From a virus (lineage: Duplodnaviria > Heunggongvirae > Uroviricota > Caudoviricetes): a stretch of DNA of 26,675 nt. The stretch lies in IMG/VR virus record IMGVR_UViG_2522572021_000010; one strand, 5' to 3'. Positions 9,040 through 26,675 of this stretch are shown piece by piece (position 1 is the first letter of the stretch; every line of letters begins with the position of its first letter). Position numbers and translations under genes: made by a program. A model generated the notes under the pieces. That model saw only the letters and a program-made list of their open reading frames with translations. It ran no database searches and was not told the origin of the DNA.

Positions 9040-9142
9040 CGACTGACCCCGTCAGCGGGCGGCGTGCGCGGTGTTCCGGTTTGACTCCGTGACCGTTTAC
9101 ACCGCGCACCCACCGCCCGATTTTTTTTCAGGAGTGAACCCC

Positions 9143-9837: not shown

Positions 9838-9839
9838 CA

Positions 9840-11561: not shown

Positions 11562-12189
11562 GGCATTCACCCGCGTGGATGAAACCTTTGAGGCCATCCG
11601 CGACAGCCTGAATCAGCAGGCCATCAATAACATCGCCAGAAAGCTGGCACAGGATTTACGCCGCGCCCAGCAGGCGCGTATCCGGTCACAGAAAGCGCCG
11701 GACGGGACCGCGTGGACACCACGCAGACGCCGCGTAACCCGGATACAGGAACGCATTCGCTTTATCTGGAATAACGAAGCACGCACGCTGAAAAACTGGC
11801 ATCACGACACGGGGAAATACGGGCGAACCATTACCGGGTGGGATGAGGATAAAAACAATATCCGCACGTTTTACCGGGATGACATCGACCGTTTTCTGGA
11901 AATACGCACCCGGCGCATCAACCAGGACAGCACAAAGCGCGTCCCCATGTTCGTAAAACTGCGCACCGCCCGCTACCTGAAAGCCCGTGCAGATGCTTCC
12001 GGTGTGACGGTGGGTTACAGCGGCGTGGCCGCACGTATTGCACGCGTTCATCAGTTCGGTGAGCGCGATCAGGTTGCGCCGGGCATTTTCACCGATTACC
12101 CGGTACGTGAGCTGCTGGGTATCAGCCAGGCAGATGAGCGCCTGATTTATAACACGGTGCTGGGCCGGATTGCGGAGGCTGTACGGTGA
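11554..12189 (+). CDS. S: Tail completion / virion morphogenesis protein (gpS-like)
   Basis: Position immediately after R, overlapping its stop; the ATG at 11554 is preferred over the GTG at 11545; longer than P2 S, so the assignment is by synteny. Confidence 0.65.
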   Translation: MDKAFTRVDETFEAIRDSLNQQAINNIARKLAQDLRRAQQARIRSQKAPDGTAWTPRRRRVTRIQERIRFIWNNEARTLKNWHHDTGKYGRTITGWDEDKNNIRTFYRDDIDRFLEIRTRRINQDSTKRVPMFVKLRTARYLKARADASGVTVGYSGVAARIARVHQFGERDQVAPGIFTDYPVRELLGISQADERLIYNTVLGRIAEAVR

Positions 12190-12767
12190 GCGCAGAACTC
12201 ATGCGACTGCTGAGCAACATCATCCGTACCGGGATCATCTCTGAAGTTGATGAGGAATCCTGGTGCGTGCGCGTTCGCAGCGGCGAACTGGAAACAGGCT
12301 GGCTGCGCTGGAACACCACGCGCGCGGGAGCCTTCAATGTGTGGCTGCCGCCATCACCCGGCGAACAGGTGGTAATTGCCTGCATTGGCGGCAACCCGGA
12401 AACCGCCATGATAATTGGCAGCCTGTGGAGTGATGCCATTCCGGCCCCCGGCAAAAGCCTGAAAGAAATCGTGGTCAGCGCGCCGGATGGCGCGGTGTTC
12501 CGCTACGACGCGGACGCAGGCGCACTGAGCGCCAGCGGCATGAAAACAGCCACCCTGCAGGCATCCGTCAGCGTGACACTGGATACGCCCGTCGTGGAAT
12601 GCACAGACCTTCTGAGAACGGCGACGCTTGACGTCACAAAAGGGGGAAAGATGAGCGGCAATATCACGCACAGCGGCGGCAATTTCACCTCAAACGGCAT
12701 CACAGTGCATACGCATAAACACGGTGGCGTTAAAGGTGGCAGCGATTCGACAGGAGGCCCGCAGTGA
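12186..12767 (+). CDS. V: Baseplate spike / assembly protein V (P2 gpV homologue)
   Basis: 193 aa; IIRTGIISEVD, WLPPSPGEQVVIA and C-terminal HTHKHGGVKGGSDSTGGP resemble gpV. Confidence 0.85.
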   Translation: MSAELMRLLSNIIRTGIISEVDEESWCVRVRSGELETGWLRWNTTRAGAFNVWLPPSPGEQVVIACIGGNPETAMIIGSLWSDAIPAPGKSLKEIVVSAPDGAVFRYDADAGALSASGMKTATLQASVSVTLDTPVVECTDLLRTATLDVTKGGKMSGNITHSGGNFTSNGITVHTHKHGGVKGGSDSTGGPQ

Positions 12768-13114
12768 CAACCCGCTACACAGGAATGAACCCGGACGGAA
12801 CGGGAAACCTGAACGATATGGAGCACCTGAAACAGTCAGTCAGGGACATCCTGACCACCCCGCTGGCAAGCCGGGTTATGCGACGGGAATATGGCAGCCT
12901 TGTGCCTGATTTGATTGACGAACCCATGAATAACACCACGCGTCTGCAATGCATGAGTGCTGCCGTGATTGCGCTGACACGATGGGAACCCCGCATTGCC
13001 CTGGACGCTATCGACGTTGTCTGGAAGGCAGGAGGCCGCGCCGGGGTGACGCTGTCGGGCACTGTCATGCAGACCATGCAGAATGTTGAATTAACCATCA
13101 CGCTGAGGGAGTAA
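12764..13114 (+). CDS. W: Baseplate wedge protein W (gp25-like; P2 gpW homologue)
   Basis: 116 aa; GTG start after AGGAGG; MTTRYTGMN... and RVMRREYGS resemble P2 W. Confidence 0.85.
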   Translation: MTTRYTGMNPDGTGNLNDMEHLKQSVRDILTTPLASRVMRREYGSLVPDLIDEPMNNTTRLQCMSAAVIALTRWEPRIALDAIDVVWKAGGRAGVTLSGTVMQTMQNVELTITLRE

Positions 13115-13117
13115 ATC

Positions 13118-14014
13118 ATGCCTGCCGTTGACCTTTCCCAGTTACCGGACCCCGCCATTATCGCGGAGCCTGACTTTGAGGCAATTCTGGCTGACACAAA
13201 GGCCATGATGATTGCGGCTTATCCCGCCGAACAGCGTGAAGCCGTCTCCGCCGCGCTGGAGCTGGAATCGGAACCCCTGAACGTTATCGCCCAGACAACA
13301 GCGTTTCGTGAAATGCTGTTACGCCAGCGGGTCAATGAGGGGGCACGGGCCTGCATGTTAAGCCACAGCACCGGGACAGACCTGGACAACCTCGCGGGCA
13401 ATATGAACACAAAGCGCCTGACCATCACTCCGGCAACGGATACCACCGACGCGGTGATGGAGAGTGACACCTCGCTGAGACTGCGGGCGCAGCGGGCGTA
13501 CGACGGCCTGAGTGTTGCTGGCCCGTCAGGTGCATACGAGTATTTTGCCCGCAGCGCCAGCGGTCTGGTGCGTGATGCGCGGGCTATCAGTCCGTCTCCG
13601 GCCAACGTGACGGTTTCCATTCTGTCCACTGAAGGCGACGGCACAGCAACGGAGGCGTTGCTTAATACCGTTCGCGCCGTTCTGAATGCAGAGGATACCC
13701 GCCCGGTGGCCGACCGCCTGACCGTACAGAGTGCCAGAATCGTGACATGGCGGCTGAATGCAAAACTGTACTTTTACCCCGGCCCGGAATCCGAACCTAT
13801 TCTGGCTGCGGCTGAATCGTCGTTCAGGAAGTGGCTGGCTGAGCAGGGGCTTATCGGTCAGGACGTGGCGTTGTCCGCCATTGCTGCCGCACTGCATGTG
13901 CACGGTGTGCAACGCGTGGAGATAATCGAACCCACACAAAATATGGCCATCAGCGACATACAGGCGGCGCGCTGTGAGTCATTCACCATCAGCGAAGGTG
14001 GGCGTAATGAGTAA
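13118..14014 (+). CDS. J: Baseplate assembly protein J (P2 gpJ homologue)
   Basis: 298 aa; N-terminus MPAVDLSQLPDP..., WRQRVNE-like block, RPVADRLTVQSA and LHVHGVQRVE resemble P2 J. Confidence 0.85.
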   Translation: MPAVDLSQLPDPAIIAEPDFEAILADTKAMMIAAYPAEQREAVSAALELESEPLNVIAQTTAFREMLLRQRVNEGARACMLSHSTGTDLDNLAGNMNTKRLTITPATDTTDAVMESDTSLRLRAQRAYDGLSVAGPSGAYEYFARSASGLVRDARAISPSPANVTVSILSTEGDGTATEALLNTVRAVLNAEDTRPVADRLTVQSARIVTWRLNAKLYFYPGPESEPILAAAESSFRKWLAEQGLIGQDVALSAIAAALHVHGVQRVEIIEPTQNMAISDIQAARCESFTISEGGRNE

Positions 14015-14537
14015 TTCACTGTTACCGCCATCAGCCAGCAATTTCATGCGTTGTGCCGAAGCTGTCGGAACGCGCATTACAGACATTCCGGTAGACCTCA
14101 ACACACTGTGGTCGCCGGACACCTGCCCGGTGCATCTGCTGCCTTATCTCGCCTGGGCATTTTCCGTTGACCGCTGGGATCGCAACTGGCCGGAAGAGAC
14201 AAAGCGACAGGTGATTCGTGATGCATGGCTGATACACCGACACAAAGGGACCATCAGCGCACTGCGCCGGGCCATTGAGCCGCTGGGATACCTCATTCGT
14301 GTGTCTGAGTGGTGGGAGTTCGGCGGAGAACCGGGAACATTTACCGTTGAAGTCGGCACGCTGGACAGTGGCGTGACGGAGGAAATGTATCTGGAAATGG
14401 AGCGGTTGATTGCTGATGCCCGCCCGGTCAGCCGCCACATGACAGGGCTGAATATCATTCAGGAGATCCCGGGGGATATTTTCGCGGCGGCAGCAACTTA
14501 CGACGGTGAAGTCATTACCATTTATCCGGACGATTAA
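14007..14537 (+). CDS. I: Baseplate protein I (P2 gpI homologue)
   Basis: Start set at the ATG at 14007, overlapping the J stop; 176 aa, the same length as P2 I. Confidence 0.8.
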   Translation: MSNSLLPPSASNFMRCAEAVGTRITDIPVDLNTLWSPDTCPVHLLPYLAWAFSVDRWDRNWPEETKRQVIRDAWLIHRHKGTISALRRAIEPLGYLIRVSEWWEFGGEPGTFTVEVGTLDSGVTEEMYLEMERLIADARPVSRHMTGLNIIQEIPGDIFAAAATYDGEVITIYPDD

Positions 14538-14539
14538 GC

Positions 14540-16525
14540 ATGAGTACCACAACACGAAAATTTAAAACCATTATCACTGATACTGGTGCCAAAAAATTAG
14601 CTCAGGCAGCCGCGCCAGGTGGTAATCCTGTCCGCCTGACTCACATGGCCGTGGGCGACGGTGGCGGCACGTTGCCCACACCAGACAGTAAGCAGACCCG
14701 TCTGGTGCATGAGGTGTGGCGACATACTGTTAATCGCGTCATCCTGGACGCAACACATCAGAACCGCATTATTGCGGAGCTGGTTATTCCTCCTGAAACG
14801 GGCGGATTCTGGATCCGGGAAATTGGTGTATTTGATGAGCACGGCGATTTGATCGCGGTGGGCAATACTGCCGAAAGTTACAAGCCAGCCGTTGCCAAAG
14901 GATCCGGACGTGCACAAACATTTCGCACCATTCTGACCGTATCCAGCACTGCCACCGTGGCGCTTACCGTGGATAACACCATGGTTATGGCCACAGTGGA
15001 TTACGTGAATGACAAACTGAAAGAACATGAACAGTCACGACGTCACCCGGACGCCTCGCTGACCGCAAAAGGCTTTGTTCAACTCAGTAGCGCCACCAAC
15101 AGCACGTCTGAAGCACTGGCCGCAACGCCGAAAGCGGTCAAGGCAGCCTATGACCTTGCTAACGGGAAATATACCGCACAGGACGCCACTACAGCGCGAA
15201 AAGGTCTTGTCCAGCTCAGTAGTGCCACCAACAGCACGTCTGAAACGCTCGCCGCAACACCAAAAGCGGTAAAGGCCGCGTATGATCTTGCTAACGCAAA
15301 ATATACCGCTCAGGACGCCACGACGGCACAAAAAGGGATTGTCCAGCTCAGTAGTGCCACCAACAGCACGTCTGAAACACTGGCCGCGACATCGAAAGCG
15401 GTTAAGGCAGTAATGGATGAAACAAATAAGAAAGCCCCATTAAACAGCCCGGCGCTGACCGGAACGCCAACAACACCAACTGCGCGACAGGGAACGAATA
15501 ATACCCAAATCGCAAGCACGGCTTTCGTTATGGCTGCGATTGCCGCCCTTGTAGATTCGTCACCTGATGCACTGAACACGCTGAACGAGCTGGCTGCGGC
15601 GCTGGGCAACGACCCGAATTTTGCGACCACCATGACTAACGCGCTTGCGGGTAAGCAACCGAAAGATGCCACCCTGACGGCGCTGGCCGGGCTTGCTACT
15701 GCGGCAGACAGGTTTCCGTATTTTACGGGGAATGATGTCGCCAGCCTGGCAACTCTGACAAAAGTCGGGCGGGATATTCTTGCGAAATCGACCGTTGCCG
15801 CCGTTATCGAATACCTCGGTTTACGAGAACTCGGCACAAGCGGGGAGAAAATACCGTTACTCAGTACAGCGAATACCTGGACCAATCGACAAACATTCAG
15901 CGGTGGCCTTTCTGGGGAACTGTCCGGCAATGCCGCTACTGCAACAAAGCTGAAAACAGCACGAAAAATTGCTGGAGTTGGTTTTGATGGTTCTAGCGAT
16001 ATTTCAATTAGTGCCAAAAATGTCAATGCATTTGCACTCCGACAAACAGGTAATACTGTTAATGGTGATACATCCGTTGGATGGAATTGGGATAGTGGTG
16101 CATATAACGCCCTGATTGGTGGTGCATCTGTATTAATTCTTCACTTTAATATAAATGCTGGTAGCTGTCCTGCCGTACAATTCCGTGTGAATTATAAAAA
16201 TGGTGGCATTTCCTACAGGTCGGCTCGTGATGGTTATGGGTTTGAATTAGGTTGGTCAGATTTCTATACCACGACACGAAAACCTTCAGCGGGAGATGTT
16301 GGTGCATATACGCAGGCAGAATGTAACTCAAGGTTTATTACAGGTATTCGCCTTGGCGGTCTGTCATCTGTTCAGACATGGAATGGTCCCGGCTGGTCTG
16401 ACAGGTCAGGTTATGTCGTTACGGGTTCAGTTAACGGAAACCGTGATGAATTAATTGATACAACACAGGCAAGGCCAATTCAGTATTGCATTAATGGGAC
16501 GTGGTATAACGCGGGGAGTATTTAA
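14540..16525 (+). CDS. H: Tail fibre protein (P2 gpH-like); constant N-terminal part plus currently expressed variable C-terminal segment
   Basis: 661 aa; three tandem 44-aa repeats; a recombination site at 15804-15829 separates the constant part from the C-terminal receptor-binding segment, which ends ...RPIQYCINGTWYNAGSI. Confidence 0.9.
   Translation: MSTTTRKFKTIITDTGAKKLAQAAAPGGNPVRLTHMAVGDGGGTLPTPDSKQTRLVHEVWRHTVNRVILDATHQNRIIAELVIPPETGGFWIREIGVFDEHGDLIAVGNTAESYKPAVAKGSGRAQTFRTILTVSSTATVALTVDNTMVMATVDYVNDKLKEHEQSRRHPDASLTAKGFVQLSSATNSTSEALAATPKAVKAAYDLANGKYTAQDATTARKGLVQLSSATNSTSETLAATPKAVKAAYDLANAKYTAQDATTAQKGIVQLSSATNSTSETLAATSKAVKAVMDETNKKAPLNSPALTGTPTTPTARQGTNNTQIASTAFVMAAIAALVDSSPDALNTLNELAAALGNDPNFATTMTNALAGKQPKDATLTALAGLATAADRFPYFTGNDVASLATLTKVGRDILAKSTVAAVIEYLGLRELGTSGEKIPLLSTANTWTNRQTFSGGLSGELSGNAATATKLKTARKIAGVGFDGSSDISISAKNVNAFALRQTGNTVNGDTSVGWNWDSGAYNALIGGASVLILHFNINAGSCPAVQFRVNYKNGGISYRSARDGYGFELGWSDFYTTTRKPSAGDVGAYTQAECNSRFITGIRLGGLSSVQTWNGPGWSDRSGYVVTGSVNGNRDELIDTTQARPIQYCINGTWYNAGSI
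15071..15412 (+). repeat. Three tandem 132-bp coding repeats inside H (phage tail-fibre repeat)
   Basis: Units begin at 15071, 15203 and 15335, each encoding G[FLI]VQLSSATNSTSE.LAAT.KAVKA.YDLAN.KYTAQDATTA.K; near-identical at the DNA level. Confidence 0.85.
15804..15829. repeat. Left invertase crossover site (gix/pix-like), inside H
   Basis: TTATCGAATACCTCGGTTTACGAGAA; 21 of 26 positions match the reverse complement of the site at 18482-18507, including an identical 12-bp ACCTCGGTTTAC core. Confidence 0.7.
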
Positions 16526-16527
16526 CG

Positions 16528-17061
16528 ATGATGCACTTAAAAAACATTACTGCTGGCAACCCTAAAACAAAAGAGCAATACCAGCTAACAAAGCAATTTA
16601 ACATCAAATGGCTTTATTCAGATGATGGAAAAAACTGGTATGAGGAACAAAAGAATTTCCAGCCAGACACTTTGAAAATGGTCTATGACCATAACGGCGT
16701 TATTATTTGTATTGAAAAGGATGTTTCAGCAATTAATCCGGAAGGCGCAAGCGTCGTTGAATTACCTGATATTACAGCAAATCGCCGGGCTGATATTTCG
16801 GGGAAATGGATGTTCAAAGATGGCGTAGTGATAAAGCGAACTTATACCGAGGAAGAGCAGAGACAACAAGCGGAAAATGAAAAGCAAAGCCTGTTGCAAC
16901 TTGTCAGGGATAAAACCCAGCTATGGGACTCACAGCTACGGCTGGGCATCATTTCCGACGAGAATAAGCAGAAATTAACCGAGTGGATGCTCTTTGCGCA
17001 GAAAGTCGAATCTACAGACACCTCCAGCCTGCCAGTAACGTTTCCCGAACAACCAGAATGA
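16528..17061 (+). CDS. Tail fibre assembly chaperone (gpG/Tfa-like), paired with the current fibre C-terminus
   Basis: 177 aa directly after H; clear paralogue of the minus-strand ORF at 17090-17617 ([22 protein letters not shown] versus [22 protein letters not shown]). Confidence 0.8.
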   Translation: MMHLKNITAGNPKTKEQYQLTKQFNIKWLYSDDGKNWYEEQKNFQPDTLKMVYDHNGVIICIEKDVSAINPEGASVVELPDITANRRADISGKWMFKDGVVIKRTYTEEEQRQQAENEKQSLLQLVRDKTQLWDSQLRLGIISDENKQKLTEWMLFAQKVESTDTSSLPVTFPEQPE

Positions 17062-17089
17062 GAGAAGGCCCGATATCGGGCCTTAATTT

Positions 17090-17617
17090 TTACTCAGGCT
17101 TTTGTGGCCATTCGGGATTTGCTGTATCCACACGGCTGACCAGAACGCTGTAGCGTTCCCATGACTCCAGTCGTGTGCGTTCCTCATCCGTCGCCATATT
17201 CAGCCTGACAGCGCGTTCCAGTGGCTGAATAACGCTTTCAGCTTCAGAAAGCAACGCGACCTTTTGTGATTCGGCCTGTTGTTGCTGTTCGTCTGCTGTA
17301 TAAATCCGCTTAACCACAGTTCCGTCCTTAAACATCCACTTCCCTGAATCATCGGCACGACGATTGGCTGTTATATCTGGAATCTCAACGACACTAAAGC
17401 CTTCGGGATTAAGCGTTGAGGCATCTTTGGTTATGGCAACAATAATATTATTTTCGTCGTATACAATCTTTATGGTGTCGTCCTGAAAGTTATTTACTTC
17501 CTCATACCAGTTTTTACCGTCTTCGGACCATAACCAGATAACATCAAAATTCTTTGTTAGCTGATATTGTTCTTTTGTTTTTGGATTTCCGGACTTAATA
17601 TTTTTTAAATGCTGCAT
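17090..17617 (-). CDS. Alternative tail fibre assembly chaperone (Tfa'), inverted orientation
   Basis: 175 aa paralogue of the plus-strand tfa, immediately downstream of the alternative fibre segment on the minus strand. Confidence 0.8.
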
Positions 17618-17620
17618 AAT

Positions 17621-18499
17621 TTACACCTGTGCGACGTTATACCATGTGCCATTGATGTATTTTTGTATTGGTCTGAAGATGGCTTCATCATCGCCATCTA
17701 CTTCACCAATGATTCTTAATCCGGTAATTGCGTGTCCGGCTTTTTCATAACGACCACCACGCGCCATCAATTGAACAACACGCGTACCCAGGCGAACATC
17801 TTTTACATAGCGTGAATCAAAATTCCCCCAGTTGCTGGGCTGTATCTGACCGTTAACAGAAAATATTACCGAGTTATCTGTATTTCGCTGGCTATAGAAA
17901 TGCCATCCTGCCTCATCGCCTAACTCTGCAACTACTGGACGGGTTGAAGCACCCCATAAATTAAACATTGCATTCTTTGTGGAGTTGTTGGAGCTGGATA
18001 GCGTGAATTTTTTACCATCCCCGGCCTGAATATTTTTAAAAGCAATAGCCACTCCATTCTGAAAGCGGAATACACGCTGACTATTAGCATAAACATCCAG
18101 AATACCGTCTCCATTCTGTTTAAATCCGGTGTCATTATCACCAAGAACAATAGAGCTACCACCTAACGCATTCGTCGAACCAACTCCAAGACTGCCATTA
18201 ATGACAGCATTAACAAGAATATTTAGTGCATCCCATTTCAGCGTCATCAGGTCTTTTGTTGTGGTGCTCTGGCGGCTTCTCCATTTGAAATATTCATTGC
18301 CGTTGTCGCCTGTTTCAAACCACATGTATGAATCAGTGTCACCATCGGCATCATTTTTAAATCCAATCTTCGCCCAGTCAGTATTTCGAATCCAGGCAAG
18401 GATTGAGTCATTTTCAAAAGTAAGCCCACCGGACAAGGTATCGCCATTTTTTTGCACGGCGTTACCAGCCCTGTTTACCGTTTCCTGTAAACCGAGGTT
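17621..18499 (-). CDS. Promoterless alternative tail-fibre C-terminal segment (Sv'), to be fused to H after inversion
   Basis: Minus-strand frame open from the crossover site to 17621. Ends ...FRPIQKYINGTWYNVAQV, parallel to the H C-terminus. No independent start with a ribosome-binding site; the frame is in phase with the H constant region across the crossover. Confidence 0.7.
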   Translation of the reverse strand, partial: NLGLQETVNRAGNAVQKNGDTLSGGLTFENDSILAWIRNTDWAKIGFKNDADGDTDSYMWFETGDNGNEYFKWRSRQSTTTKDLMTLKWDALNILVNAVINGSLGVGSTNALGGSSIVLGDNDTGFKQNGDGILDVYANSQRVFRFQNGVAIAFKNIQAGDGKKFTLSSSNNSTKNAMFNLWGASTRPVVAELGDEAGWHFYSQRNTDNSVIFSVNGQIQPSNWGNFDSRYVKDVRLGTRVVQLMARGGRYEKAGHAITGLRIIGEVDGDDEAIFRPIQKYINGTWYNVAQV

Positions 18500-18507
18500 T
18501 TAAATAA
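18482..18507. repeat. Right invertase crossover site (gix/pix-like)
   Basis: TTCCTGTAAACCGAGGTTTTAAATAA, an inverted copy of the site at 15804-15829; lies 54 bp upstream of the invertase start. Confidence 0.7.
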
Positions 18508-18561
18508 TGGCCGTTTCTGGCCTGCATGGCATGATTTGCGCTTTTGGACGGGAGATTCAGT

Positions 18562-19161
18562 GTGCTGATTGGCTATGTAAGGGTATCAACAAATGACCAG
18601 AATACAGACCTGCAACGAAACGCTCTTGTTTGTGCAGGATGTGAACAAATATTTGAAGATAAATTAAGCGGGACAAAGACAGACCGACCGGGATTAAAAC
18701 GCGCTTTAAAGCGCCTTCAAAAAGGTGACACGCTGGTTGTCTGGAAACTGGATCGCCTCGGGCGAAGCATGAAACATCTGATTTCTCTCGTCGGGGAACT
18801 ACGGGAGCGAGGGATTAATTTTCGCAGTCTGACCGACAGCATAGACACATCTTCTCCAATGGGGCGTTTTTTCTTCCACGTGATGGGTGCCCTGGCTGAA
18901 ATGGAACGTGAATTAATTGTTGAACGTACACTGGCCGGGCTGGCGGCAGCGCGCGCAAGGGGGCGCACAGGCGGACGTCGACCGAAGCTGACAAAAGAAC
19001 AGCATGAGCAAATAGCAAGGCTAATCAAAAACGGGCACGACAGAAAACAACTGGCAATAATTTACGGCATTGGCACATCGACGATTTATCGTTATCACCC
19101 TGTAGGCGATATACAGACTGAAGAAACAACCGGGCAGACTCAGGAAAATGAAAACCGCTAA
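18562..19161 (+). CDS. pin: Serine DNA invertase, Hin/Gin/Pin/Cin family
   Basis: GTG start after GGACGGGAG; N-terminus LIGYVRVSTNDQNTDLQRNAL with the catalytic Ser; C-terminal helix-turn-helix (GTSTIYRY). Near-identical over most of its length to the e14 Pin sequence as remembered. Confidence 0.85.
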   Translation: MLIGYVRVSTNDQNTDLQRNALVCAGCEQIFEDKLSGTKTDRPGLKRALKRLQKGDTLVVWKLDRLGRSMKHLISLVGELRERGINFRSLTDSIDTSSPMGRFFFHVMGALAEMERELIVERTLAGLAAARARGRTGGRRPKLTKEQHEQIARLIKNGHDRKQLAIIYGIGTSTIYRYHPVGDIQTEETTGQTQENENR

Positions 19162-19180
19162 TCTGACCATTAGCGGTTTT
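19151..19180. terminator. Bidirectional hairpin between convergent pin and U
   Basis: AAAACCGCTAAT (19151-19162), loop CTGACC, ATTAGCGGTTTT (19169-19180); an A/T run on each side allows termination from both strands. Confidence 0.45.
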
Positions 19181-19189
19181 TGTGTTAAA

Positions 19190-19684
19190 TCAGAACAGCC
19201 CTTTAACTGAACTGGCCGCGCTGTTAAGAGATGATGTCACCTTATCTTTGAATCCGGACAGCATATCACTGAACGATGAGGATTGCAGGCGCTCCCGCAA
19301 ATCCTCATCACAGCGTTCAAGAGTCAGTGAAAATTCTATCTTTTTCGCCTTACCGTAGCGATCAAACTCGGAGCGGGTCGTATTCGTTTCAGTCAGGACA
19401 TACATGCCGTAAATCTGCCCGACGCCATCAATCAAAGGCCAGGGTCGTCCTGTATACGCCTGCGTGGTCAGCAGCGACAGCGACACTTCGCCACCTGTAA
19501 TTTCAGGATAAAGCACACCAGAAAGAACGATGCGATCATCACCTGCACCGATATACTGCCAGCTTGCTGAACGGTTAACGCGTTCATTTTTCACATGCCG
19601 CCAGCTTTTGTTTTGCTGTAACTGCTGATGCGGCAGCGTGCGCAGCTCAAAAACAAACATGCCGTAGATCATCATCATGGCCAT
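19190..19684 (-). CDS. U: Tail protein U (P2 gpU homologue)
   Basis: 164 aa, immediately downstream of the tape measure gene on the minus strand; size and position match P2 U. Confidence 0.8.
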   Translation of the reverse strand: MAMMMIYGMFVFELRTLPHQQLQQNKSWRHVKNERVNRSASWQYIGAGDDRIVLSGVLYPEITGGEVSLSLLTTQAYTGRPWPLIDGVGQIYGMYVLTETNTTRSEFDRYGKAKKIEFSLTLERCDEDLRERLQSSSFSDMLSGFKDKVTSSLNSAASSVKGLF

Positions 19685-19690
19685 GACTCC

Positions 19691-22534
19691 TCAATCTTTA
19701 TCGTAAAAACTGCCACGCCCGGCACGGGCGCGCCGTTCCATTTCTGCCCTGACCATTTCACCGACCAGTTTCGCCAGTTCGCGGGGATTCTGCGTAACAA
19801 CGTTATGCAGATGAACATGAATTTCACCACCAAATCCGGAGGCAACAGGCTCCCGGTTACGGGAAGTTACAGGAACTGATGCCACTGGAGATCGTATAGC
19901 CTCCGCCACCGGGCGGGAGCTGGCCGCAACAACAGGGACCAGCGCCGGAGGCAGCGGAGCCGGGACCACGGGTGTGATATTAATTGCGGGGGCAGGCTTA
20001 CTGACCTGCGCAATCTTCCGCTCCTGCCACTCCCCACGAACAGCAAGTGCTCGGGGCAGGTTTTTAAAGACAATATCGCCGGGGCCAATGCGTTTTTTCG
20101 TCTCCTCAACCAGCTTACCTGTGTTATCAGCAATTTTGCTGAGTCTGCGCAGCGTACCGGTATTGCTGTCTGTGAGCGGTTTATTGTCTTTGGGGTTATC
20201 ACCTCCGGTGCCATTGCCATTTTCCACAGGCTTCGGCGGATTGATTTTCGCCAGGTCCCCCTGAAGCAAGGCAACCTTGTCCTGAAGAATGGCCGCACGC
20301 TGTGCGTCTTCGATTTTCTTGCGCGCCCTTTCCGCTTCATCCGGAAGCACACCAAGCTTTTCAAGTATCCACGCCAGCGTATCCAGCAACATTTTTGCAG
20401 GTGTCAGAACAAGTTGTAACGCACCGCCAAGAACGTTACCGAATATCTCGCCAGCACTGGTACATTTATCCAGAGTTTCCTTGCTGGACTCCATCGGTGA
20501 CAGCAGCGATTTAAACCAGTTAAACACCTGGCTGATCCCACTCCCGATTGCGTCAAAAACAGGACCAAACCGTTCAAAGGTTTCGCGCAACGGGGTCAGC
20601 CTTTCCATAATCCCGCTGAACACCCAGGCAAAAAATGCCCTGATGGGATCCCAGTATTTCCAGATAAGAACGGCAGCTCCGGCAAGCGCAGCCACGATAA
20701 GACCAACCGGACTGAACAACGCCCCGATAGCGCCTCCCAGTAAAGAAACGGAACCCGTCACCATTCCCCATAGTGCTGGCAGAACCCTGACAGCATTCAT
20801 TGATCCGGTCAGGAGGGAAAAACCAAGACGCAGTTTTGCCAGCGGGCCAGCAAGCACACCAATAGCCAGCGACAACGAGCCAACCGTTGCAGTCATTGCC
20901 AGCAGTGCACCGCCTGCAATCAGTAGCTGGCGCGTCAGTGCGGGATGGGCCTGCGCCAGCGCCGTCACCTTTGATACCACACGCGTGAGCCACTGCGTGA
21001 CAGAACGCAGCGGACCGTCAATCAGATCTGCAATGCGGATGCGCAACCCTTCCCATGCACTGCTGAGTGATTTCAGATCGCCGTCAAGGTTGTTGGCCAT
21101 AACCTTTGCCGTGCGTTCAGCCTCACCGCGCGCGCCTTCAAGTTCTTTTCTCAGTTTGGGTAAGGAGCCGTCACCTGCCGCATCAACGAGGGCCATAAAT
21201 GATGTGAAAGCCTCTTCTCCGGCAATGTCCTTAAAGAACGATACCCGGTCAACTTCCCCGTATTTGCGGGTAGCTTTATAAAGGTCAGCCAGCACATCCT
21301 CCATCGGGCGCATTTTGCCCCCGGCATCCGAGACAGACACGCCAAGCTCTTTCAGCGCCTCTGCTGCCGCCTTTGGCGGTGATGCCAGACGAGCCAGGCT
21401 GGCACGCATTGCCGTACCAGCATCACTCCCCCTGATACCCATATTCGCCAGCACGCCCGCCATCGCTGCGGCCTGCTCCAGCGATATTCCCAGCTTACCC
21501 GCCACCGGACCTGCATATTTCATGGTTTCACCCAGTGCGCGAAGGTCAGTGTTGGTACGGGTAAACGCTGCGGTGAGTGTGTCGCCGACCCGGTCCATCT
21601 GGTCAGCAGAAAGACCGAACTGCGTCAGAATATTTGAGCCAATATCCGCCGTCTCACCGAGGTCCATACCGCCAGCCGTTGCCATGCTCAGTACGCCAGG
21701 GAGCGCAGCCTGAATGGCCTGTGGTGTAAAGCCAGCCATTGCAAGAAATGCCTGTCCACTGGCGGCATCGCCTGCGGTGAACTGCGTTTCAGAGCCAAGT
21801 TTTAACGCCTGCTCACGCAGCGCCTTAAACTGCGGGCTGTTCTGGTCGATTCGCGTCAGTGCCTGAACGCGGGACATCTCTTTGCCGAACCCGATCGCAG
21901 GCTGCAAAAAACGCCCGGCAGCATAGCCGCCCGCCGCTGCCGCACCAATTGCCAGCGCACCACCTGTTTTCAGTTTTCCCGCTGTTTCCTGCGCGCGCGA
22001 ATACCGCTCACGCGCCCGTGTTACACGCGCAAGCGCCTGCCGTTCGCGTTCAAGCTGGTTGTTGTACTGTTCGGTGCGTCTGATGGCCTGCTGGATGGTG
22101 TTATCGCTGCCTGTCAGGGAAATGCCGTGGCGTTTCAGCTCTCCGCCAAGCTCCCGCATTTTCTGAATTTCCCGTGTGCGCGATTCATTCAGGCGTTCAA
22201 GCCGGGTGCTTAACTGCTGCATCAGCTTTTGTTGTTTTTCGCTGAGCACTGTACCCGTGCGTTGTAACTGATTAAGGGCGTTAAGCTGGCGTCGTGCTTT
22301 CACGATGCCCGCATCCGCTTTACTGACAGCGTCACGGGCGCGCTCAAATGATCGCGCCTGACGCTCGAGATTTTTGATCGCCCCCTGCGTTCGCTGGATG
22401 GAGTCACCAAACTGCCCCATCAGGCGGCGGGCGTTTTCGGCAGGCCGGGTCAGCCTGTCAACGGCGCTGAAAGCGACCCGGATATCAAGAGTCTTCATTG
22501 TCTGCATTCCCGCTACGAAGTGCCGCCCGCTCAC
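19691..22534 (-). CDS. T: Tail tape measure protein (P2 gpT homologue)
   Basis: 947 aa; N-terminal coiled-coil region, central hydrophobic/Gly-Ala-rich segments; position between E/E' and U. Confidence 0.85.
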   Translation of the reverse strand: MSGRHFVAGMQTMKTLDIRVAFSAVDRLTRPAENARRLMGQFGDSIQRTQGAIKNLERQARSFERARDAVSKADAGIVKARRQLNALNQLQRTGTVLSEKQQKLMQQLSTRLERLNESRTREIQKMRELGGELKRHGISLTGSDNTIQQAIRRTEQYNNQLERERQALARVTRARERYSRAQETAGKLKTGGALAIGAAAAGGYAAGRFLQPAIGFGKEMSRVQALTRIDQNSPQFKALREQALKLGSETQFTAGDAASGQAFLAMAGFTPQAIQAALPGVLSMATAGGMDLGETADIGSNILTQFGLSADQMDRVGDTLTAAFTRTNTDLRALGETMKYAGPVAGKLGISLEQAAAMAGVLANMGIRGSDAGTAMRASLARLASPPKAAAEALKELGVSVSDAGGKMRPMEDVLADLYKATRKYGEVDRVSFFKDIAGEEAFTSFMALVDAAGDGSLPKLRKELEGARGEAERTAKVMANNLDGDLKSLSSAWEGLRIRIADLIDGPLRSVTQWLTRVVSKVTALAQAHPALTRQLLIAGGALLAMTATVGSLSLAIGVLAGPLAKLRLGFSLLTGSMNAVRVLPALWGMVTGSVSLLGGAIGALFSPVGLIVAALAGAAVLIWKYWDPIRAFFAWVFSGIMERLTPLRETFERFGPVFDAIGSGISQVFNWFKSLLSPMESSKETLDKCTSAGEIFGNVLGGALQLVLTPAKMLLDTLAWILEKLGVLPDEAERARKKIEDAQRAAILQDKVALLQGDLAKINPPKPVENGNGTGGDNPKDNKPLTDSNTGTLRRLSKIADNTGKLVEETKKRIGPGDIVFKNLPRALAVRGEWQERKIAQVSKPAPAINITPVVPAPLPPALVPVVAASSRPVAEAIRSPVASVPVTSRNREPVASGFGGEIHVHLHNVVTQNPRELAKLVGEMVRAEMERRARAGRGSFYDKD

Positions 22535-23023
22535 GCCAGCTAACCACTTCGCCGGGCGTCATCATGAAGATTTCGGCGGGCGACCAGTTAAAAATGGCGG
22601 CAATATCCGCCACCAGATCTTCGATGTGCTCAAAGCACACCAGGGTGATTACGCTGCCGTCTCCTGCACGCTCTTCGCGCCAGAGTCTGGCTCGCTCATA
22701 AAATTTACAGCCACAGCGCACAACTGAATAAAATCGCGTGACGACATTTTTTTAATCATCACTTCATCCAGTCGTGGCGAGGTCACGCGAGGCAACAGCG
22801 TGAACATGGTATCCGCTTTCAGATTCAGCACATCAGACAGCGACAGACCACGCAGGGATCCAGCCTGCTCAATAGCCCCGGTGATCTCCACATACGTGAT
22901 TTTTTCGCCACCACGCTCAATTGGTCGGGTCAGTTTTACGCCACGTTCGACAGCCATATCCTCAACTGCCGTCACATTATCCGCCACGGTGTTATTCCGG
23001 GTTTCAGTATCGATGTCTTTCAT
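22485..23023 (-). CDS. E+E' fusion chaperone produced by programmed -1 frameshift
   Basis: The -1 frame opens directly after a TAA just before the A7 run and stays open to 22485, overlapping the T start. The predicted junction is ...MIKK then NVVTRFYSVV... Confidence 0.6.
22649..23023 (-). CDS. E: Tail assembly chaperone E (P2 gpE homologue)
   Basis: 124 aa ORF between the tail tube and tape measure genes; contains an A7 slippery run at 22747-22753; LDRPIERG-like motif (LTRPIERGGEKITYVEI). Confidence 0.8.
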   Translation of the reverse strand: MKDIDTETRNNTVADNVTAVEDMAVERGVKLTRPIERGGEKITYVEITGAIEQAGSLRGLSLSDVLNLKADTMFTLLPRVTSPRLDEVMIKKMSSRDFIQLCAVAVNFMSEPDSGAKSVQETAA

Positions 23024-23078
23024 CTGTTGTCTCCTTTTCAGTCAGAGGCGACGCACTGCGCCGCCAGCATATTACTTA

Positions 23079-23591
23079 TCAGCCAAGCCCAAGCGCGGAA
23101 CGGATGCGATCGGGCACAATGTCCTTGCCGTCCTTCCGGTAAATGAAGTTCAGCAGGTCAATCTCCCACAACGGGCGATCGTTAACACTCAGCTTGTAGT
23201 AGGTGTTTTTAATGGCGTAAGTGTGTGATGTGGCTTCGCCCTGTTTGGCTTCCCCCATATCAATTTCCGTCACACGTCCGCGCATTTCGACTTCATACAG
23301 GTCGCTTTCTGCATCGGTGTAGTATTCACCCGCAAAACGCAGCAGCGTGCCGTCAATCGTGCCGCCATACTTAAGGAACAGCTCACGAACTGCGCCCCCC
23401 ATGACAAAGCTCGCATCAAGCGCGGAGTCGTCCAGACCGAGATCAATACTTACCGCACCCATCATGCCACCACCCCGGTAGCTGTCGGTTTTGCGCGTCA
23501 GCTTAGGCAGAGTGACGGACGTCACCTTACCCACTTCGTTTTCACCATCCACAAACAGCGTAAAAAAGCGAAGATGTTTTGGCACAGCCAT
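23079..23591 (-). CDS. FII: Tail tube protein (P2 gpFII homologue)
   Basis: 170 aa; start overlaps the FI stop (ATGA); size matches P2 FII (about 172 aa). Confidence 0.85.
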   Translation of the reverse strand: MAVPKHLRFFTLFVDGENEVGKVTSVTLPKLTRKTDSYRGGGMMGAVSIDLGLDDSALDASFVMGGAVRELFLKYGGTIDGTLLRFAGEYYTDAESDLYEVEMRGRVTEIDMGEAKQGEATSHTYAIKNTYYKLSVNDRPLWEIDLLNFIYRKDGKDIVPDRIRSALGLG

Positions 23592-24775
23592 CAGGCACCT
23601 CCCAGCACCGCAAATGCGGGTTCAAAGTATTCATCAGTAAACGTCTGGTAAAGCTCCATGTCTTCCAGTGGCGGAACGGGCGTATATTTGTAGCGAATAC
23701 GCACACGTCCCTGACGTAAATCCGTGGTGCTGTTATCCACCACGTCATACCAGCACTCCGCGCCAATCAGTTTCCCGGCAGTCACCAGTGAATCCAGTTT
23801 TGCCCTGATGGCACTGATAACATCCTTCACATTCGCAGGCGTCAGTGGACTGTCGATGGTTTCAAACTGCGCTTCCGCAATTGAATCAGCCAGCACCTGT
23901 GCGGTTCGGGTATACACCTCAAAGATGTAGGCGTTCGTTTCCGGTGTGCGGTTACCCCAGAAGCGGAACCCGTTGCGACGAATAATGGTCGTGATTTCTT
24001 TGTTGTTGAGGCTGTTGGCATCGCTGTCTTCGGCCTGCAACGACCAGAACACATGCCTGGACATTCCCAGCACATTTTTAACCGGAACGTTGGACAGCGA
24101 TTTGTGCCAGCCCTGCTCATGGTCAATGTACGCACGAAGGCCGCACGCATAAGCAGGCGCGGGGAACGTTTCGTTTTTGCCACTTTTCGGGTTGTAGGCG
24201 ATGAAGTCAGGCCATAAGAGCATCACCTCACGTTCGTTGAATTTCTGGCGGTAGGTAATCGCCTCAGCCATCGTGTTACAACCATGACATGTGGCATACA
24301 CAAACGCGCGCAGTTTACCTGCAATCACGCACAGGGATTTTGTTACCGCCTCCGTGTCCAGCTCCGGCGCGGCCAGAATACGCGGACGGTATCCGATGCT
24401 TTCATCCTGCTCTGCAACAAGCAGCGCATACATCCCCGTATAGCTGCCGTCATCCTCAGAACCACCGATAACCAGTTGATCCTGCGTCTTTCCGTCTTCT
24501 TCTTTGTGTTCAGCCACGCGAACGACGATCACCTTTGTGCTCACCTGGTCTGCGATGGCCTTAAGCGCACGATAAAGCGTCCCCGTTGTTCCGCATTTTC
24601 CCAGCACGTCATTGACGCGGGTCAGCAGTGTGGGCTTGTTCAGCGGGAACAGCTCCGCGTCCGCATCATCCGCCGTTGCCACGATACCGATAACGCTGGA
24701 ATCAACATCGTTAATCGCTGTTACCAGGTCGGTATTTTCCGTAACACGGGCACCATGAAAACGAGTTTCACTCAT
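23591..24775 (-). CDS. FI: Contractile tail sheath protein (P2 gpFI homologue)
   Basis: 394 aa, against about 396 aa for P2 FI; first gene of the minus-strand tail block. Confidence 0.85.
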   Translation of the reverse strand: MSETRFHGARVTENTDLVTAINDVDSSVIGIVATADDADAELFPLNKPTLLTRVNDVLGKCGTTGTLYRALKAIADQVSTKVIVVRVAEHKEEDGKTQDQLVIGGSEDDGSYTGMYALLVAEQDESIGYRPRILAAPELDTEAVTKSLCVIAGKLRAFVYATCHGCNTMAEAITYRQKFNEREVMLLWPDFIAYNPKSGKNETFPAPAYACGLRAYIDHEQGWHKSLSNVPVKNVLGMSRHVFWSLQAEDSDANSLNNKEITTIIRRNGFRFWGNRTPETNAYIFEVYTRTAQVLADSIAEAQFETIDSPLTPANVKDVISAIRAKLDSLVTAGKLIGAECWYDVVDNSTTDLRQGRVRIRYKYTPVPPLEDMELYQTFTDEYFEPAFAVLGGA

Positions 24776-24932
24776 AGCTTCAGCCCCTTGTATCCGTTAA
24801 ATGATTCGGCAACAATCATCACCCACCACGCGCGTAATCTCACCCCTGCGCCGTTCTCCCGACCCGGCGACAACAAAAAGCAGTAACCCCCTCCGCACAC
24901 ACATGCGACCATGCCGCACAGGGAGGGAGCAG

Positions 24933-26042
24933 ATGACCGACACCACCATGCAATTGCTCAGCCAGGGCACAGACCCCGTAAAAATGCCGGATTTTGATAT
25001 TCTCGCGGAGGGTAAAACGCTGTCCGGCGTGGCAGAGCGCCTGATGAGCCTGTCGCTGACCGACAACCGGGGATTTGAGGCAGACCAGCTCACCATCACG
25101 CTGGATGATGCGGATGGTCAGTTGCAGCTACCGCCACGGGGCGCGCGCCTGACGGTTCTCATTGGCTGGAAAGGCGAACCGCTGACAGAAAAAGGGTCTT
25201 ACATTGTTGATGAAATCGCACACGAAGGACCGCCGGACAGGCTGACTGTTTCAGCCAGAAGCGCAGATTTCCGGGATGAATTTAACGTTAAACGTGAGGT
25301 GTCCTGGCATGATGTGACCGTTGAGCGTGTGGTATCCGCCATCGCTCATCGGTACGGTCTGAAACCGCAAATCAGCGAAATGCTGATGGATATCGAAATC
25401 GACCACGCCGACCAGACCGAAGAAAGTGACATGTCCTTCCTTACGCGCATGGCGGAAATGCTGGGCGCAATCACTACGGTAAAAAGCGGTAATCTGTTAT
25501 TCATCATGCCCGGTGGTGGCGTGAACGCACAGGGCCAGCCGTTGCCATCGTTCGCCATCACGCGCAGCAGCGGCGATCGCCATCAGTTCCGCATTGCTGA
25601 CCGCGAGGCGTATACGGGGGTACGCGCCTACTGGCTTGATCTTAATTACGGGAAAAAGAAAAAAGTCAGCGTGAAACGCCGCAAACCGCCAAAACCGAAA
25701 AAAGAGAAAAGCAGCAGCCGTGAAGGTGATTATATGGAAGGCGCGGAAGGCAATGTGTTTGTGTTACGCAAGACTTATCAGAACGAGCAGGCAGCAAGAC
25801 GCGCAGCGGCGGCAAAGTGGCAACAACTACAACGCGGAGCCGCATCATTCTCCATCACGCTGGCACGTGGACGAGCAGAACTCTACCCCGAAATGCATGG
25901 CACGGTAACAGGATTTAAAAGCGAGATTGATAATCAGGACTGGATTATTGCAAAAGCCGAGCACACCATTGATAACAGCGGCTTTACCACGCAGCTTGAG
26001 CTTGAGGCAAAAATCCCGGAATGGATAGCGGAAACAGAGTGA
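24933..26042 (+). CDS. D: Tail protein D (late control gene D homologue)
   Basis: Start set at the ATG at 24933 after GGGAGGGAG (the ORF track starts upstream at 24801); about 369 aa; Lys-rich internal patch (KKKKVSVKRRKPPKPKKEK); followed by ogr. Confidence 0.8.
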   Translation: MTDTTMQLLSQGTDPVKMPDFDILAEGKTLSGVAERLMSLSLTDNRGFEADQLTITLDDADGQLQLPPRGARLTVLIGWKGEPLTEKGSYIVDEIAHEGPPDRLTVSARSADFRDEFNVKREVSWHDVTVERVVSAIAHRYGLKPQISEMLMDIEIDHADQTEESDMSFLTRMAEMLGAITTVKSGNLLFIMPGGGVNAQGQPLPSFAITRSSGDRHQFRIADREAYTGVRAYWLDLNYGKKKKVSVKRRKPPKPKKEKSSSREGDYMEGAEGNVFVLRKTYQNEQAARRAAAAKWQQLQRGAASFSITLARGRAELYPEMHGTVTGFKSEIDNQDWIIAKAEHTIDNSGFTTQLELEAKIPEWIAETE

Positions 26043-26084: not shown

Positions 26085-26345
26085 ATGTTCCGTTGTCCGC
26101 TTTGTGGCGCATCTGCCCGTATCCGCACCAGTCGTCCGGAAAATGATTCAAACACCGTGCGGCAAAAGTATTACCAGTGTAACAACCTGGAATGCGGCGT
26201 ATGCTTCTCAACACTGGAAGCTTTCCATAAATTCACATCGAAACACGCCTCCGGCGTTCACTCATCAGAAGGTATCCCGTGGCATGAGCTGCCAGCTTCA
26301 CACAGGGGAAACAATCAGATGAGTTTGCCTTTACCTCAGAATTAA
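26085..26345 (+). CDS. ogr: Ogr/Delta-family zinc-finger late transcription activator
   Basis: N-terminus MFRCPLCG...YYQCNNLEC carries the Cys4 zinc-binding pattern of Ogr; AAGGAGG ribosome-binding site; last gene of the late region. Confidence 0.85.
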   Translation: MFRCPLCGASARIRTSRPENDSNTVRQKYYQCNNLECGVCFSTLEAFHKFTSKHASGVHSSEGIPWHELPASHRGNNQMSLPLPQN

Positions 26346-26534: not shown

Positions 26535-26675
26535 ATGTCGCAAAAATCGCTTACGGCCATCACGTTCTGCGTGACGGTAATCCTCATCATCTGGATGCTG
26601 CACGGTTCGCTGTGTGAAATACGGATGAGCTTCTGGGGAGCGGAGTTTGCGGCGTTCTTACAGTGTAAGCAGTAA
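26535..26675 (+). CDS. Hok/Gef-family type I toxin (small membrane peptide)
   Basis: 46-aa ORF (too short for the ORF track) after AAGGAG: MSQKSLTAITFCVTVILIIWMLHGSLCEIR...AAFLQCKQ. Has the N-terminal transmembrane helix, the SLCEIR motif and the AAF C-terminal pattern of the Hok family; ends exactly at the window edge. Confidence 0.7.
   Translation: MSQKSLTAITFCVTVILIIWMLHGSLCEIRMSFWGAEFAAFLQCKQ

Follow-up and report, generated by a model that had tools for sequence, protein, structure and literature searches.

The tail genes FI to U of the prophage analysed here are carried on the strand opposite to that of the genes on either side of them. Throughout the P88-like branch of the P2-type phages this orientation is the norm; it is ancient and has become fixed. 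It is likely that the order became fixed in the clade of this P88-like prophage through a single ancient in-place inversion, and that FI and D share one Ogr box as a result. In what follows, the window is the whole stretch of DNA that was analysed, 26,675 nucleotides in length.

Gene content and strands of the tail block

Gene identities were assigned from the list of ORFs, from Pfam matches and from tblastn comparisons with P2, Fels-2 and P88. The identities and strands proposed in the first-pass annotation, which had been made from the sequence alone, were confirmed by these comparisons. U, T, E/E', FII and FI (19190-24775) are situated on the minus strand, and H, tfa, pin, D and ogr on the plus strand. 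The leftward unit begins with FI (23591-24775, minus strand), the gene for the tail sheath protein gpFI, which contains Pfam sheath domains and is 46-48% identical to FI of P2 and Fels-2 (tblastn). It is followed by FII (23079-23591, minus strand), encoding the tail tube protein gpFII (Pfam Phage_tube, 7.5e-47), and by E (22649-23023, minus strand), whose product, the tail assembly chaperone gpE, shows a weak match to Pfam Phage_TAC_7 and 35% identity to P2 E. Translation of the E' extension (22485-22706, minus strand) would require ribosomes to slip into the -1 frame at the heptamer A_AAT_TTT (22706-22700, E reading frame). The -1 frame is open across 73 codons after the heptamer, the region matches Pfam Phage_P2_GpE (3.4e-12), and PGAP, on identical DNA, calls a GpE family protein at this position. 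T (19691-22534, minus strand) encodes the tape measure protein gpT (Pfam PhageMin_Tail, 3.7e-58; 33% identity to P2 T by tblastn), and the last gene of the unit, U (19190-19684, minus strand), encodes the tail protein gpU (Phage_P2_GpU, 5.5e-39; 46% identity to U of P2 and Fels-2 by tblastn).

To the left of the block lies pin (18544-19161, plus strand), the product of which is a serine invertase of the Pin/Gin family with Pfam Resolvase and HTH_7 domains. To the right of the block, a rightward D-ogr unit begins with D (24933-26042, plus strand), which encodes the baseplate hub protein gpD (Pfam Phage_GPD; 48-53% identity to D of P2 and Fels-2 by tblastn); its start at 24933 is backed by the PGAP and P88 annotations. 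The ogr gene (26085-26345, plus strand) encodes an 86-residue zinc-finger late activator of the Ogr/Delta type (Pfam Ogr_Delta, 5.1e-14). With Pfam matches for all of its parts and 33-53% identity to the P2 proteins, this is a contractile tail module of the P2 type (Peduoviridae). No Rfam family was found in the FI to U block, and the sole match in the window was the IS3 ALIL pseudoknot.

The Xuanwuvirus phages P88, P884B11 and 503458 and Citrobacter PhiSM are 96-98% identical in nucleotide sequence to the window over positions 2811-26675. They have the same order, with U to FI opposite to H, pin, D and ogr, and the same 157-bp spacer containing TCT-N12-ACA. The window differs from them in that it lacks the int/C/cox/replication half, with hsdM' and an IS3 element abutting at about 2626-2811, and in that its H/tfa invertible segment is in the orientation opposite to that of P88. 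On identity and order over 2811-26675, the early half being absent, the window is classified as a P88-like (Xuanwuvirus, Peduoviridae) prophage.

A hairpin resembling a bidirectional intrinsic terminator (19151-19180) is situated between the convergent pin and U genes and overlaps the last codons of pin. It was also picked up by a terminator scan. The first-pass annotation had proposed that pin and U share this hairpin, and folding on either strand agrees with that proposal (-17.1 and -15.7 kcal/mol; z -4.7 and -4.0). A crude scan detected a terminator-like hairpin 3' of U in 21 of the 32 members of the clade.

Distribution of the gene order

In the P2 record, FI, FII, E, E', T, U, D and ogr are found on one strand, downstream of V-W-J-I-H-G, as stated in the first-pass annotation. 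Relative to the order in P2 and Fels-2, the layout in the window is exactly that of an in-place inversion of FI to U, again as proposed. The P2 F operon (pF: FI FII E E' T U D, with read-through into ogr) consists of the same genes in the same internal order as in the window, also with a -1 frameshift from E into E', and in both an activator box precedes the FI ATG by about 83 bp. The P2 operon is co-directional with V-W-J-I-H-G and includes D, whereas in the window FI to U is flipped and D-ogr is a separate, divergent unit. A further comparison is with Fels-2 (Felsduovirus), which is P2-like and encodes a tail-fibre invertase. It shares with the window the order H, G, G', H', invertase, tail genes, D and ogr, and its invertase is 75% identical to the window pin product. 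In Fels-2, however, FI to U is co-directional with the invertase and D; the window has the Fels-2 order with FI to U flipped.

The inversion had been considered an oddity and possibly an artefact of assembly, an idea to which reference P2-like genomes with this same orientation as their norm were named as the contrary evidence. That is what the synteny comparison found. The orientation is the norm of the lineage in P88, PhiSM, SEN4 and 3LV2017, in prophages, in IMG/VR contigs and in Escherichia coli genomes. Among reference phages, the gene order is the same in P88 and PhiSM (Xuanwuvirus), SEN4 (Senquatrovirus) and 3LV2017 (Reginaelenavirus). Both P88 and PhiSM are plaque-forming (PMC6456863, PMC5285337). 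No description of the inversion was found in the literature searched on P88, Xuanwuvirus, SEN4/SEN5, xnp1/xenorhabdicin and P2-like late promoters.

Among prophage loci from other bacterial species, all 29 with a gpD at least 61% identical to that of the window have U, T, E, FII and FI on the minus strand and D and ogr on the plus strand. All 51 sampled loci with a gpD at or below 54% identity are canonical or without the inversion. This survey covered the best 80 matches per search, so that rare canonical members of the clade, or independent inversions in Peduoviridae, may have escaped it. A homologue of D is present in 525 phage records. In IMG/VR, 73 contigs have the inverted order, in comparison with five canonical relatives and 66 canonical phiCTX-like contigs; canonical order is kept by P2, by Fels-2 and by the outgroup phiCTX. 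The divergent FI/D junction is contiguous in 1357 of the 1379 complete E. coli genomes that hold it, the remainder being truncations, and the opposite orientation of FI to U was found in none of these 1379 genomes. E. coli strain 95-3192 carries the junction at 100% identity, in a remnant that is further deleted.

The invertible H/tfa segment and pin

The window does contain a true invertible segment (15800-18511), which includes alternative C-termini of H and the tfa genes and is bounded by inverted repeat I4 and inverted gix-like sites. Two gix cores (15813-15824 and 18487-18498), the only ones with two or fewer mismatches in the window, flank H/tfa, and positions 16027-17827 are in the opposite orientation in P88. 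This segment resembles those acted on by Gin, Cin, Pin and Hin in its inverted gix-like sites, its adjacent serine invertase gene and the presence of both orientations among relatives. FI to U, in contrast, is without such sites and has one orientation in every genome examined. In agreement with the first-pass annotation, no gix-like core (two or fewer mismatches) was found at either edge of FI to U, and a pin/gix mechanism is not indicated. With no gix pair at its ends and a single orientation among relatives, FI to U does not belong with the serine-invertase segments. Most members of the clade are without pin, and pin is a neighbour of the block, not the cause of its orientation.

No long inverted repeats flank FI to U. 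The best inverted pair spanning the block (22 nt, 82% complementary, with a perfect 12-bp core) is at chance level in 12.7 kb, is situated inside the pin and D coding sequences, and was rejected as a candidate. Neither breakpoint has a repeat or site that would explain the inversion.

Probable origin of the inverted order

Neighbour-joining trees were determined for D, which lies outside the block, and for FI, which lies inside it. Both gave an identical 31/41 split, and the distance to P2 is equal for genes in and out of the block (42-55% identity). Because the D and FI trees split alike, the arrangement looks like the product of one ancient in-place inversion. In the ancestor the genes would have been arranged H-tfa-[inv]-FI..U-D-ogr, much as in Fels-2 and P2. 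One in-place event would then have flipped the activator box of the F promoter, the promoter itself and FI to U together, splitting the old F operon into a leftward FI to U unit that ends at the bidirectional terminator and a rightward D-ogr unit. The dyad-symmetric Ogr box would have moved with FI, and for that reason would now be located roughly halfway between the two divergent genes. For D, a second late promoter in the other direction probably uses this same box, as the P2 pP and pO promoters share one activator site.

Three other explanations of the gene order were considered. A mis-join in assembly at 19.1-19.2 kb and 24.8-24.9 kb can be given practically no credence; no evidence in its support was found, and the same divergent junction is contiguous not only in the 1357 complete E. 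coli genomes but in the independently sequenced P88, PhiSM, SEN4 and 3LV2017, in 29 other species and in the 73 IMG/VR contigs. It is just as hard to believe that FI to U is actively or recently invertible, whether by Pin, by an IS element or by recombination between inverted repeats, such that its orientation would be strain-specific or phase-variable. The proximity of pin, which directly adjoins the left edge of the block, and the presence elsewhere in the window of a working-looking Pin shufflon and an IS3 element might suggest such an origin, but both gix-like cores bound H/tfa only, the best spanning repeat is a chance-level one within the coding sequences of pin and D, and the inversion is present where pin is absent in most of the clade. 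Moreover, the other orientation occurs in no E. coli genome, whereas that of H/tfa differs between the window and P88.

Replacement of the module, in which FI to U would have been inserted backwards from another lineage of contractile-tailed phages, is improbable, though to a lesser degree. Phage genomes are mosaic, both routes would leave similar end states after so old an event, and E and T, with 33-35% identity to P2, are fairly divergent. Against this, FI, FII and U are 44-48% identical to their P2/Fels-2 counterparts and the outside genes N, P, Q and D are 42-53% identical; the FI and D trees share their bipartition; and the PF box stands as far from the FI ATG as it does in canonical-order genomes.

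An Ogr-type box in the FI/D spacer

FI and D diverge from a control region of 157 bp (24776-24932, with the D start as in PGAP and P88), a length that had been given in the first-pass annotation and that holds with those annotated starts. The spacer is 140-162 bp in 30 of 31 related inverted loci; the exception, L014, has 194 bp and a D start that is probably mis-called. An Ogr-type activator box, GTTCT-N12-ACAACAAAA, is located at 24853-24878, with its core, TCT-N12-ACA, at 24855-24872 and its centre at 24863/24864. It was recognized by comparing the P/O spacer with the FI/D spacer, and then the relatives. P2-type late promoters depend on Ogr and the RNA polymerase alpha subunit, and have upstream a dyad box, TGT-N12-ACA, centred about 55 bp from the start. 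In the window the box is present with one mismatch; P2's own PF and PO boxes, TGT-N12-CCA, also have one mismatch.

According to the first-pass annotation, no TGT-N12-ACA Ogr element is present at the breakpoints. This is correct for exact matches, of which there are three in the window (6.1 expected by chance), none of them in a late spacer. It does not extend to the element as such, since the one-mismatch form sits in the middle of the spacer and exact TGT-N12-ACA is found at the same position in the FI/D spacer in 26 of 27 relatives outside the P88 group. The extended box occurs twice in the window, against 0.18 copies expected, and the only other copy of GTTCT-N12-ACAACAAAA is that in the divergent P/O spacer (6189-6214).

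The geometry of the box is conserved. In the window, 88.5 bp separate its centre from the start codon of FI and 69.5 bp from that of D. All 31 relatives have one box per spacer, with the centre 80.5-88.5 bp from FI, and in 29 of the 31 it is 66.5-80.5 bp from D; in L014 and L030 the distance to D is 111.5 and 55.5 bp, with D starts that are probably mis-called. The equivalent PF box in canonical-order loci is 79.5-86.5 bp from FI. The gene order, its distribution, the box and this conserved geometry are direct observations.

The P/O spacer provides the model for comparison. From the centre of the P/O box the distance is 73.5 bp to the start codon of P (6126) and 81.5 bp to the probable start codon of O (6281). 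In the P2 annotation, pP and pO have one activator site between them, and transcription starts 55-56 bp away from it in each direction, so that a single dyad box lies midway between divergent late genes. The window resembles this arrangement in having one copy of the extended box in each of its P/O (154 bp) and FI/D (157 bp) spacers. P2 has the shared box in P/O only; in the present clade it is proposed for FI/D as well, with starts that are predicted. SEN4 has exact boxes in the P/O, S/V and FI/D spacers, while in Xuanwuvirus S and V overlap and there is no spacer for a V promoter.

Predicted divergent promoters for FI and D

The first-pass annotation had argued that D, severed from the F operon, would need its own promoter. 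This is in accord with the inverted layout, in which D is indeed cut off from that operon. A predicted -10 element for FI (PF), GATGAT, is situated on the minus strand at 24815-24820, +44..+49 from the box centre, with a predicted start at about 24807-24809; in P2 the PF -10 element is at +45..+50 and the mapped start at +57..+59. For D, a predicted -10 element, GACCAT, lies on the plus strand at 24907-24912, again +44..+49 from the centre, with a predicted start at about 24918-24921. These -10-like positions imply predicted starts at about +55..+57 on either side. The bases A45, A48 and T49 are invariant on the FI side in all 30 unique clade sequences; for the D side, where there are 27 unique sequences, they are retained in 25, 24 and 25, respectively. 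On the D side of relatives, TTGTCT-17 nt-AATCAT is found, the same layout as in the SEN4 V promoter; the window has a poor -35 region there and a predicted leader of only 12-15 nt. A scan of the FI/D spacer for sigma-70 consensus sequences detected no promoter, as would be expected of activator-dependent promoters.

Given the box in the spacer and the conserved -10-like positions equidistant on its two sides, D is probably transcribed from a divergent late promoter served by the activator site of the F promoter, in the manner of the P and O promoters of P2; both the control of D by the box and the positions of the starts are predictions from sequence. It is possible, but unlikely, that the inversion occurred as described and the box serves FI only, D and ogr being transcribed from a promoter that is Ogr-independent or located elsewhere. 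The unrecognizable -35 region and very short predicted leader on the D side of the window are consistent with that possibility, as are the empty sigma-70 scan of the spacer, a promoter-like site at 25905-25934, within D and upstream of ogr, and the promoter that P2 ogr has of its own. However, 24-25 of 27 unique sequences have A45, A48 and T49 on the D side, spaced from the box as they are on the FI side, and relatives have there a clear TTGTCT-17-AATCAT like that of the SEN4 V late promoter. In addition, gpD is an essential late tail protein timed with FI to U (P2 record notes), and P2 pP/pO is a precedent for one shared site.

Implications for the late regulon

It may well be that the inversion was tolerated and fixed because a symmetric Ogr box placed beside D created a second bidirectional late control region. 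In Xuanwuvirus, expression of all of the late genes would then depend on only two shared boxes, P<-box->O and FI<-box->D, and ogr would itself belong to an Ogr-activated unit. No description of such a rewiring of the classic P2 late regulon was found in the literature searched.

Taken together, these results show that the orientation is not an error of sequencing and not a DNA switch of a new kind, but the standard order of a well-sampled lineage, which is present in roughly one in four complete E. coli genomes. The orientation cleanly sets apart a single deep P2-type clade, which spans Xuanwuvirus, Senquatrovirus and Reginaelenavirus as well as numerous prophages of Xenorhabdus, Photorhabdus, Providencia, Klebsiella and Kosakonia, from P2, 186/Fels-2 and the phiCTX-like phages. 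It also represents a natural case of an operon that was split by inversion and apparently rescued through a shared, symmetric activator site.

Gene layout of the tail region

The layout of the tail region was determined from a six-frame ORF list, Pfam domains and tblastn comparisons with P2, Fels-2 and P88. H (14540-16525), tfa (16528-17061) and pin (18544-19161) lie on the plus strand, with an alternative tfa' (17090-17617) and an alternative H' (17621-18457) on the minus strand between the last two. U (19190-19684), T (19691-22534), E (22649-23023), FII (23079-23591) and FI (23591-24775) are on the minus strand, and D (24933-26042) and ogr (26085-26345) on the plus strand. These data confirm the strands assigned to FI-U, D and ogr in the first-pass annotation, as well as its 157-bp FI/D spacer, the D start matching the PGAP and P88 annotations. 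The hairpin that it placed at 19151-19180 folds on both strands (-17.1 and -15.7 kcal/mol), and none of 200 shuffled sequences was as stable. A slippery heptamer, A_AAT_TTT, occurs in the E reading frame at 22700-22706 (minus strand), and the -1 (E') frame that follows is open for 73 codons (22485-22706) and contains a Pfam GpE domain; as judged from sequence, this corresponds to the E/E' frameshift expected of the tail chaperone. The tail genes, the frameshift and the late-promoter box of the window are of the P2 type.

Comparison with P2, Fels-2 and other relatives

In the P2 record, FI, FII, E, E', T, U, D and ogr occupy one strand, behind V-W-J-I-H-G, under the promoter pF. Fels-2 has the order H, G, G', H', invertase, FI-U, D, ogr, and all of its tail genes point the same way as the invertase. 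The window therefore has exactly the Fels-2 order with FI-U flipped, and the proposed inversion relative to P2 is borne out. The nearest phage records, P88, P884B11, phage 503458 and Citrobacter PhiSM (all Xuanwuvirus), are 96-98% identical and share the arrangement. It is apparent that the arrangement works, since P88 and PhiSM, both temperate, can be induced and form plaques (PMC5285337, PMC6456863). The PhiSM paper describes virions with a long, non-contractile, siphovirus-type tail (PMC6456863); the deposited PhiSM genome (locus L002) encodes a P2-type sheath, tube and baseplate.

Inverted order was also found, without an invertase adjoining U, in SEN4 (Senquatrovirus) and Klebsiella 3LV2017 (Reginaelenavirus). 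A gpD-based scan was performed with one genome per bacterial species, and the best 80 loci were taken. Among these, all 29 loci with at least 61% gpD identity to the window were U- T- E- FII- FI- D+ ogr+, and all 51 with at most 54% were canonical or without visible inversion. Hosts of the inverted loci were Salmonella, Kluyvera, Kosakonia, Klebsiella, Enterobacter, Citrobacter, Xenorhabdus, Photorhabdus, Providencia, Morganella, Yersinia, Hafnia, Rouxiella, Dryocola and Pectobacterium, with one record labelled Vagococcus. Among the IMG/VR matches listed, 73 contigs were inverted, and canonical order was seen in 5 relatives at 54% or less and in 66 phiCTX-like contigs. The orientation of FI-U is thus not peculiar to the window; the prophage is a Xuanwuvirus member with the normal gene order of its genus. 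The inversion is plainly visible in annotated reference genomes; a search of the accessible literature found no comment on it.

Origin of the inverted order

An anomaly, possibly an assembly artefact, had been suggested, wrongly: the orientation proved to be the norm of the lineage, an outcome that the first-pass annotation itself had named as refuting. The FI/D region is present in 1379 of 5426 complete E. coli genomes, and a contiguous divergent FI/D junction was found in 1357 of these, the remainder being truncations, which rules out both an artefact and ongoing switching. Nor does the block behave as a serine-invertase segment, as it lacks crossover sites and was seen in a single orientation, never flipped, among the related genomes examined. 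Gix-like cores occur just twice in the window, at 15813-15824 and 18487-18498, on either side of the H/tfa segment, in agreement with the earlier failure to find such sites at the block breakpoints, and no inverted repeats beyond chance flank the block in the window. The H/tfa segment does flip, as window 16027-17827 is in the opposite orientation in P88. This true Pin-type invertible tail-fibre segment (15800-18511) has inverted gix-like sites, alternative H C-termini and two tfa genes; the alternative H' end shares 96-98% identity with the C-terminal regions of H in P2 and PhiSM.

There was likewise no sign of a foreign origin of the FI-U module, as proteins within and beyond the block are about equally distant from P2. 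Identities to P2/Fels-2 (tblastn) were 46-48% (FI), 44-47% (FII) and 46% (U) inside, and 42% (N), 44-45% (P), 47-51% (Q), 48-53% (D) and 50-55% (J) outside. Neighbour-joining trees were built for D, which lies outside the block, and for FI, within it; in both, the inverted genomes form a single bipartition, 31 versus 41. The outgroup, Pseudomonas phage phiCTX, has the canonical order, which is thus ancestral and the inverted order derived.

An Ogr-type box in the FI/D and P/O spacers

The first-pass annotation reported no Ogr element at the breakpoints. That holds for the exact TGT-N12-ACA, which has no match in the FI/D spacer, but not overall. Comparison of the two divergent late spacers revealed a shared motif, GTTCT-N12-ACAACAAAA, at 6189-6214 (P/O) and 24853-24878 (FI/D), with unrelated 12-nt centres; these are its only matches in the entire window (0.18 expected). 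Its core, TCT-N12-ACA, is one mismatch from the P2 consensus, as are the P2 pF and pO boxes (TGT-N12-CCA). The gpO ORF is longest when started at 6248; its second Met (6281), annotated as the start in P88, coincides in alignment with the N-terminus of P2 gpO and is preceded by a Shine-Dalgarno sequence, GAGGGG. With this start the P/O spacer is 154 bp, close to that of FI/D.

Exactly one such box is present in the FI/D spacer of all 31 related inverted-order loci. Twenty-six loci have the exact TGT-N12-ACA; the four loci of the P88 group match the window in having TCT-N12-ACA, and two from Providencia have TCT-N12-AGA. All but one of the 31 spacers measure 140-162 bp, and the box centre lies 80.5-88.5 bp from the FI ATG (31 loci) and 66.5-80.5 bp from the D ATG (29 loci). 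The exceptions are L014, with a 194-bp spacer and the box centred 111.5 bp from D, and the Yersinia aleksiciae locus L030, with the box centred 55.5 bp from D; both probably have mis-called D starts. Of 40 canonical-order loci, 36 have the pF box at a distance of 79.5-86.5 bp from the FI ATG (82.5 in P2). This similar spacing indicates that the inverted segment included the box and pF, placing the box beside D.

Predicted divergent promoters for FI and D

D needs its own promoter, as the first-pass annotation proposed, and conserved sequence patterns lie on both sides of the box. On the FI side, all 30 unique sequences have A, A and T at positions +45, +48 and +49 from the box centre; on the D side, 25, 24 and 25 of 27 do, respectively, and the surrounding DNA is otherwise variable. 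P2 pF has GAAAAT at +45 to +50 and a mapped start at +57 to +59. The corresponding hexamers of the window read GATGAT on the minus strand (24820-24815) and GACCAT at 24907-24912, and the predicted starts would lie at about 24807-24809 (minus) and 24918-24921 (plus). Many relatives have TTGTCT-17 nt-AATCAT on the D side, a layout matching that of the SEN4 V promoter; exact boxes are present in the P/O, S/V and FI/D spacers of SEN4.

A GC-rich, CGCGCG-type element was observed between the predicted -35 and -10 (window 24826-24840). The P88 group carries it on the FI side, most other clade members (loci L007-L033) on the D side, and L030 on both. A small plus-strand 'hypothetical protein' at about 24755-24886 (11570-11701 in related locus L001), annotated by P88 (gp50) and PGAP, spans the FI start and the FI/D spacer, overlapping the predicted control region; it is probably a spurious call.

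Window ends

P88 homology begins only at window 2811 (P88 nt 10836), so the int/C/cox/replication half of the phage is missing from the window. Next to the prophage (window 1-2811) lie a type I restriction-modification methylase gene resembling hsdM, broken into minus-strand ORFs 1-318 and 334-1167, and a transposase of the IS3 family (1371-2584; ALIL frameshift pseudoknot at 1652-1768). The prophage is probably IS-truncated and defective. E. coli strain 95-3192 has the same locus with window 2627-20198 additionally deleted. After ogr lies a hok/gef-family toxin gene (26535-26675), annotated by PGAP and in P88 on identical or near-identical DNA, whose stop codon is the window end; an Rfam search for RNA families turned up neither Sok nor hok there.

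Late control in the lineage

In the P2 record, one activator site (3057-3087) serves both pP and pO (starts 3016 and 3127), so that the use of a single box by a divergent pair of late promoters has a direct precedent. By analogy, the FI/D box may form a second bidirectional late control region, with Ogr-dependent promoters predicted on both sides; the modest remaining novelty would be a new D promoter sharing the pF activator box. S (11545-12189) and V (12186-12767) overlap at 12186-12189, leaving no V-promoter spacer in Xuanwuvirus; the lineage thus lacks the orf30, terminator and pV spacer of P2. The search of the window gave no further activator box beyond these two, whereas in SEN4 the S and V genes are still separated by a spacer that carries an exact one. 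If the shared box drives D, the late regulon would be reduced to two bidirectional control regions.
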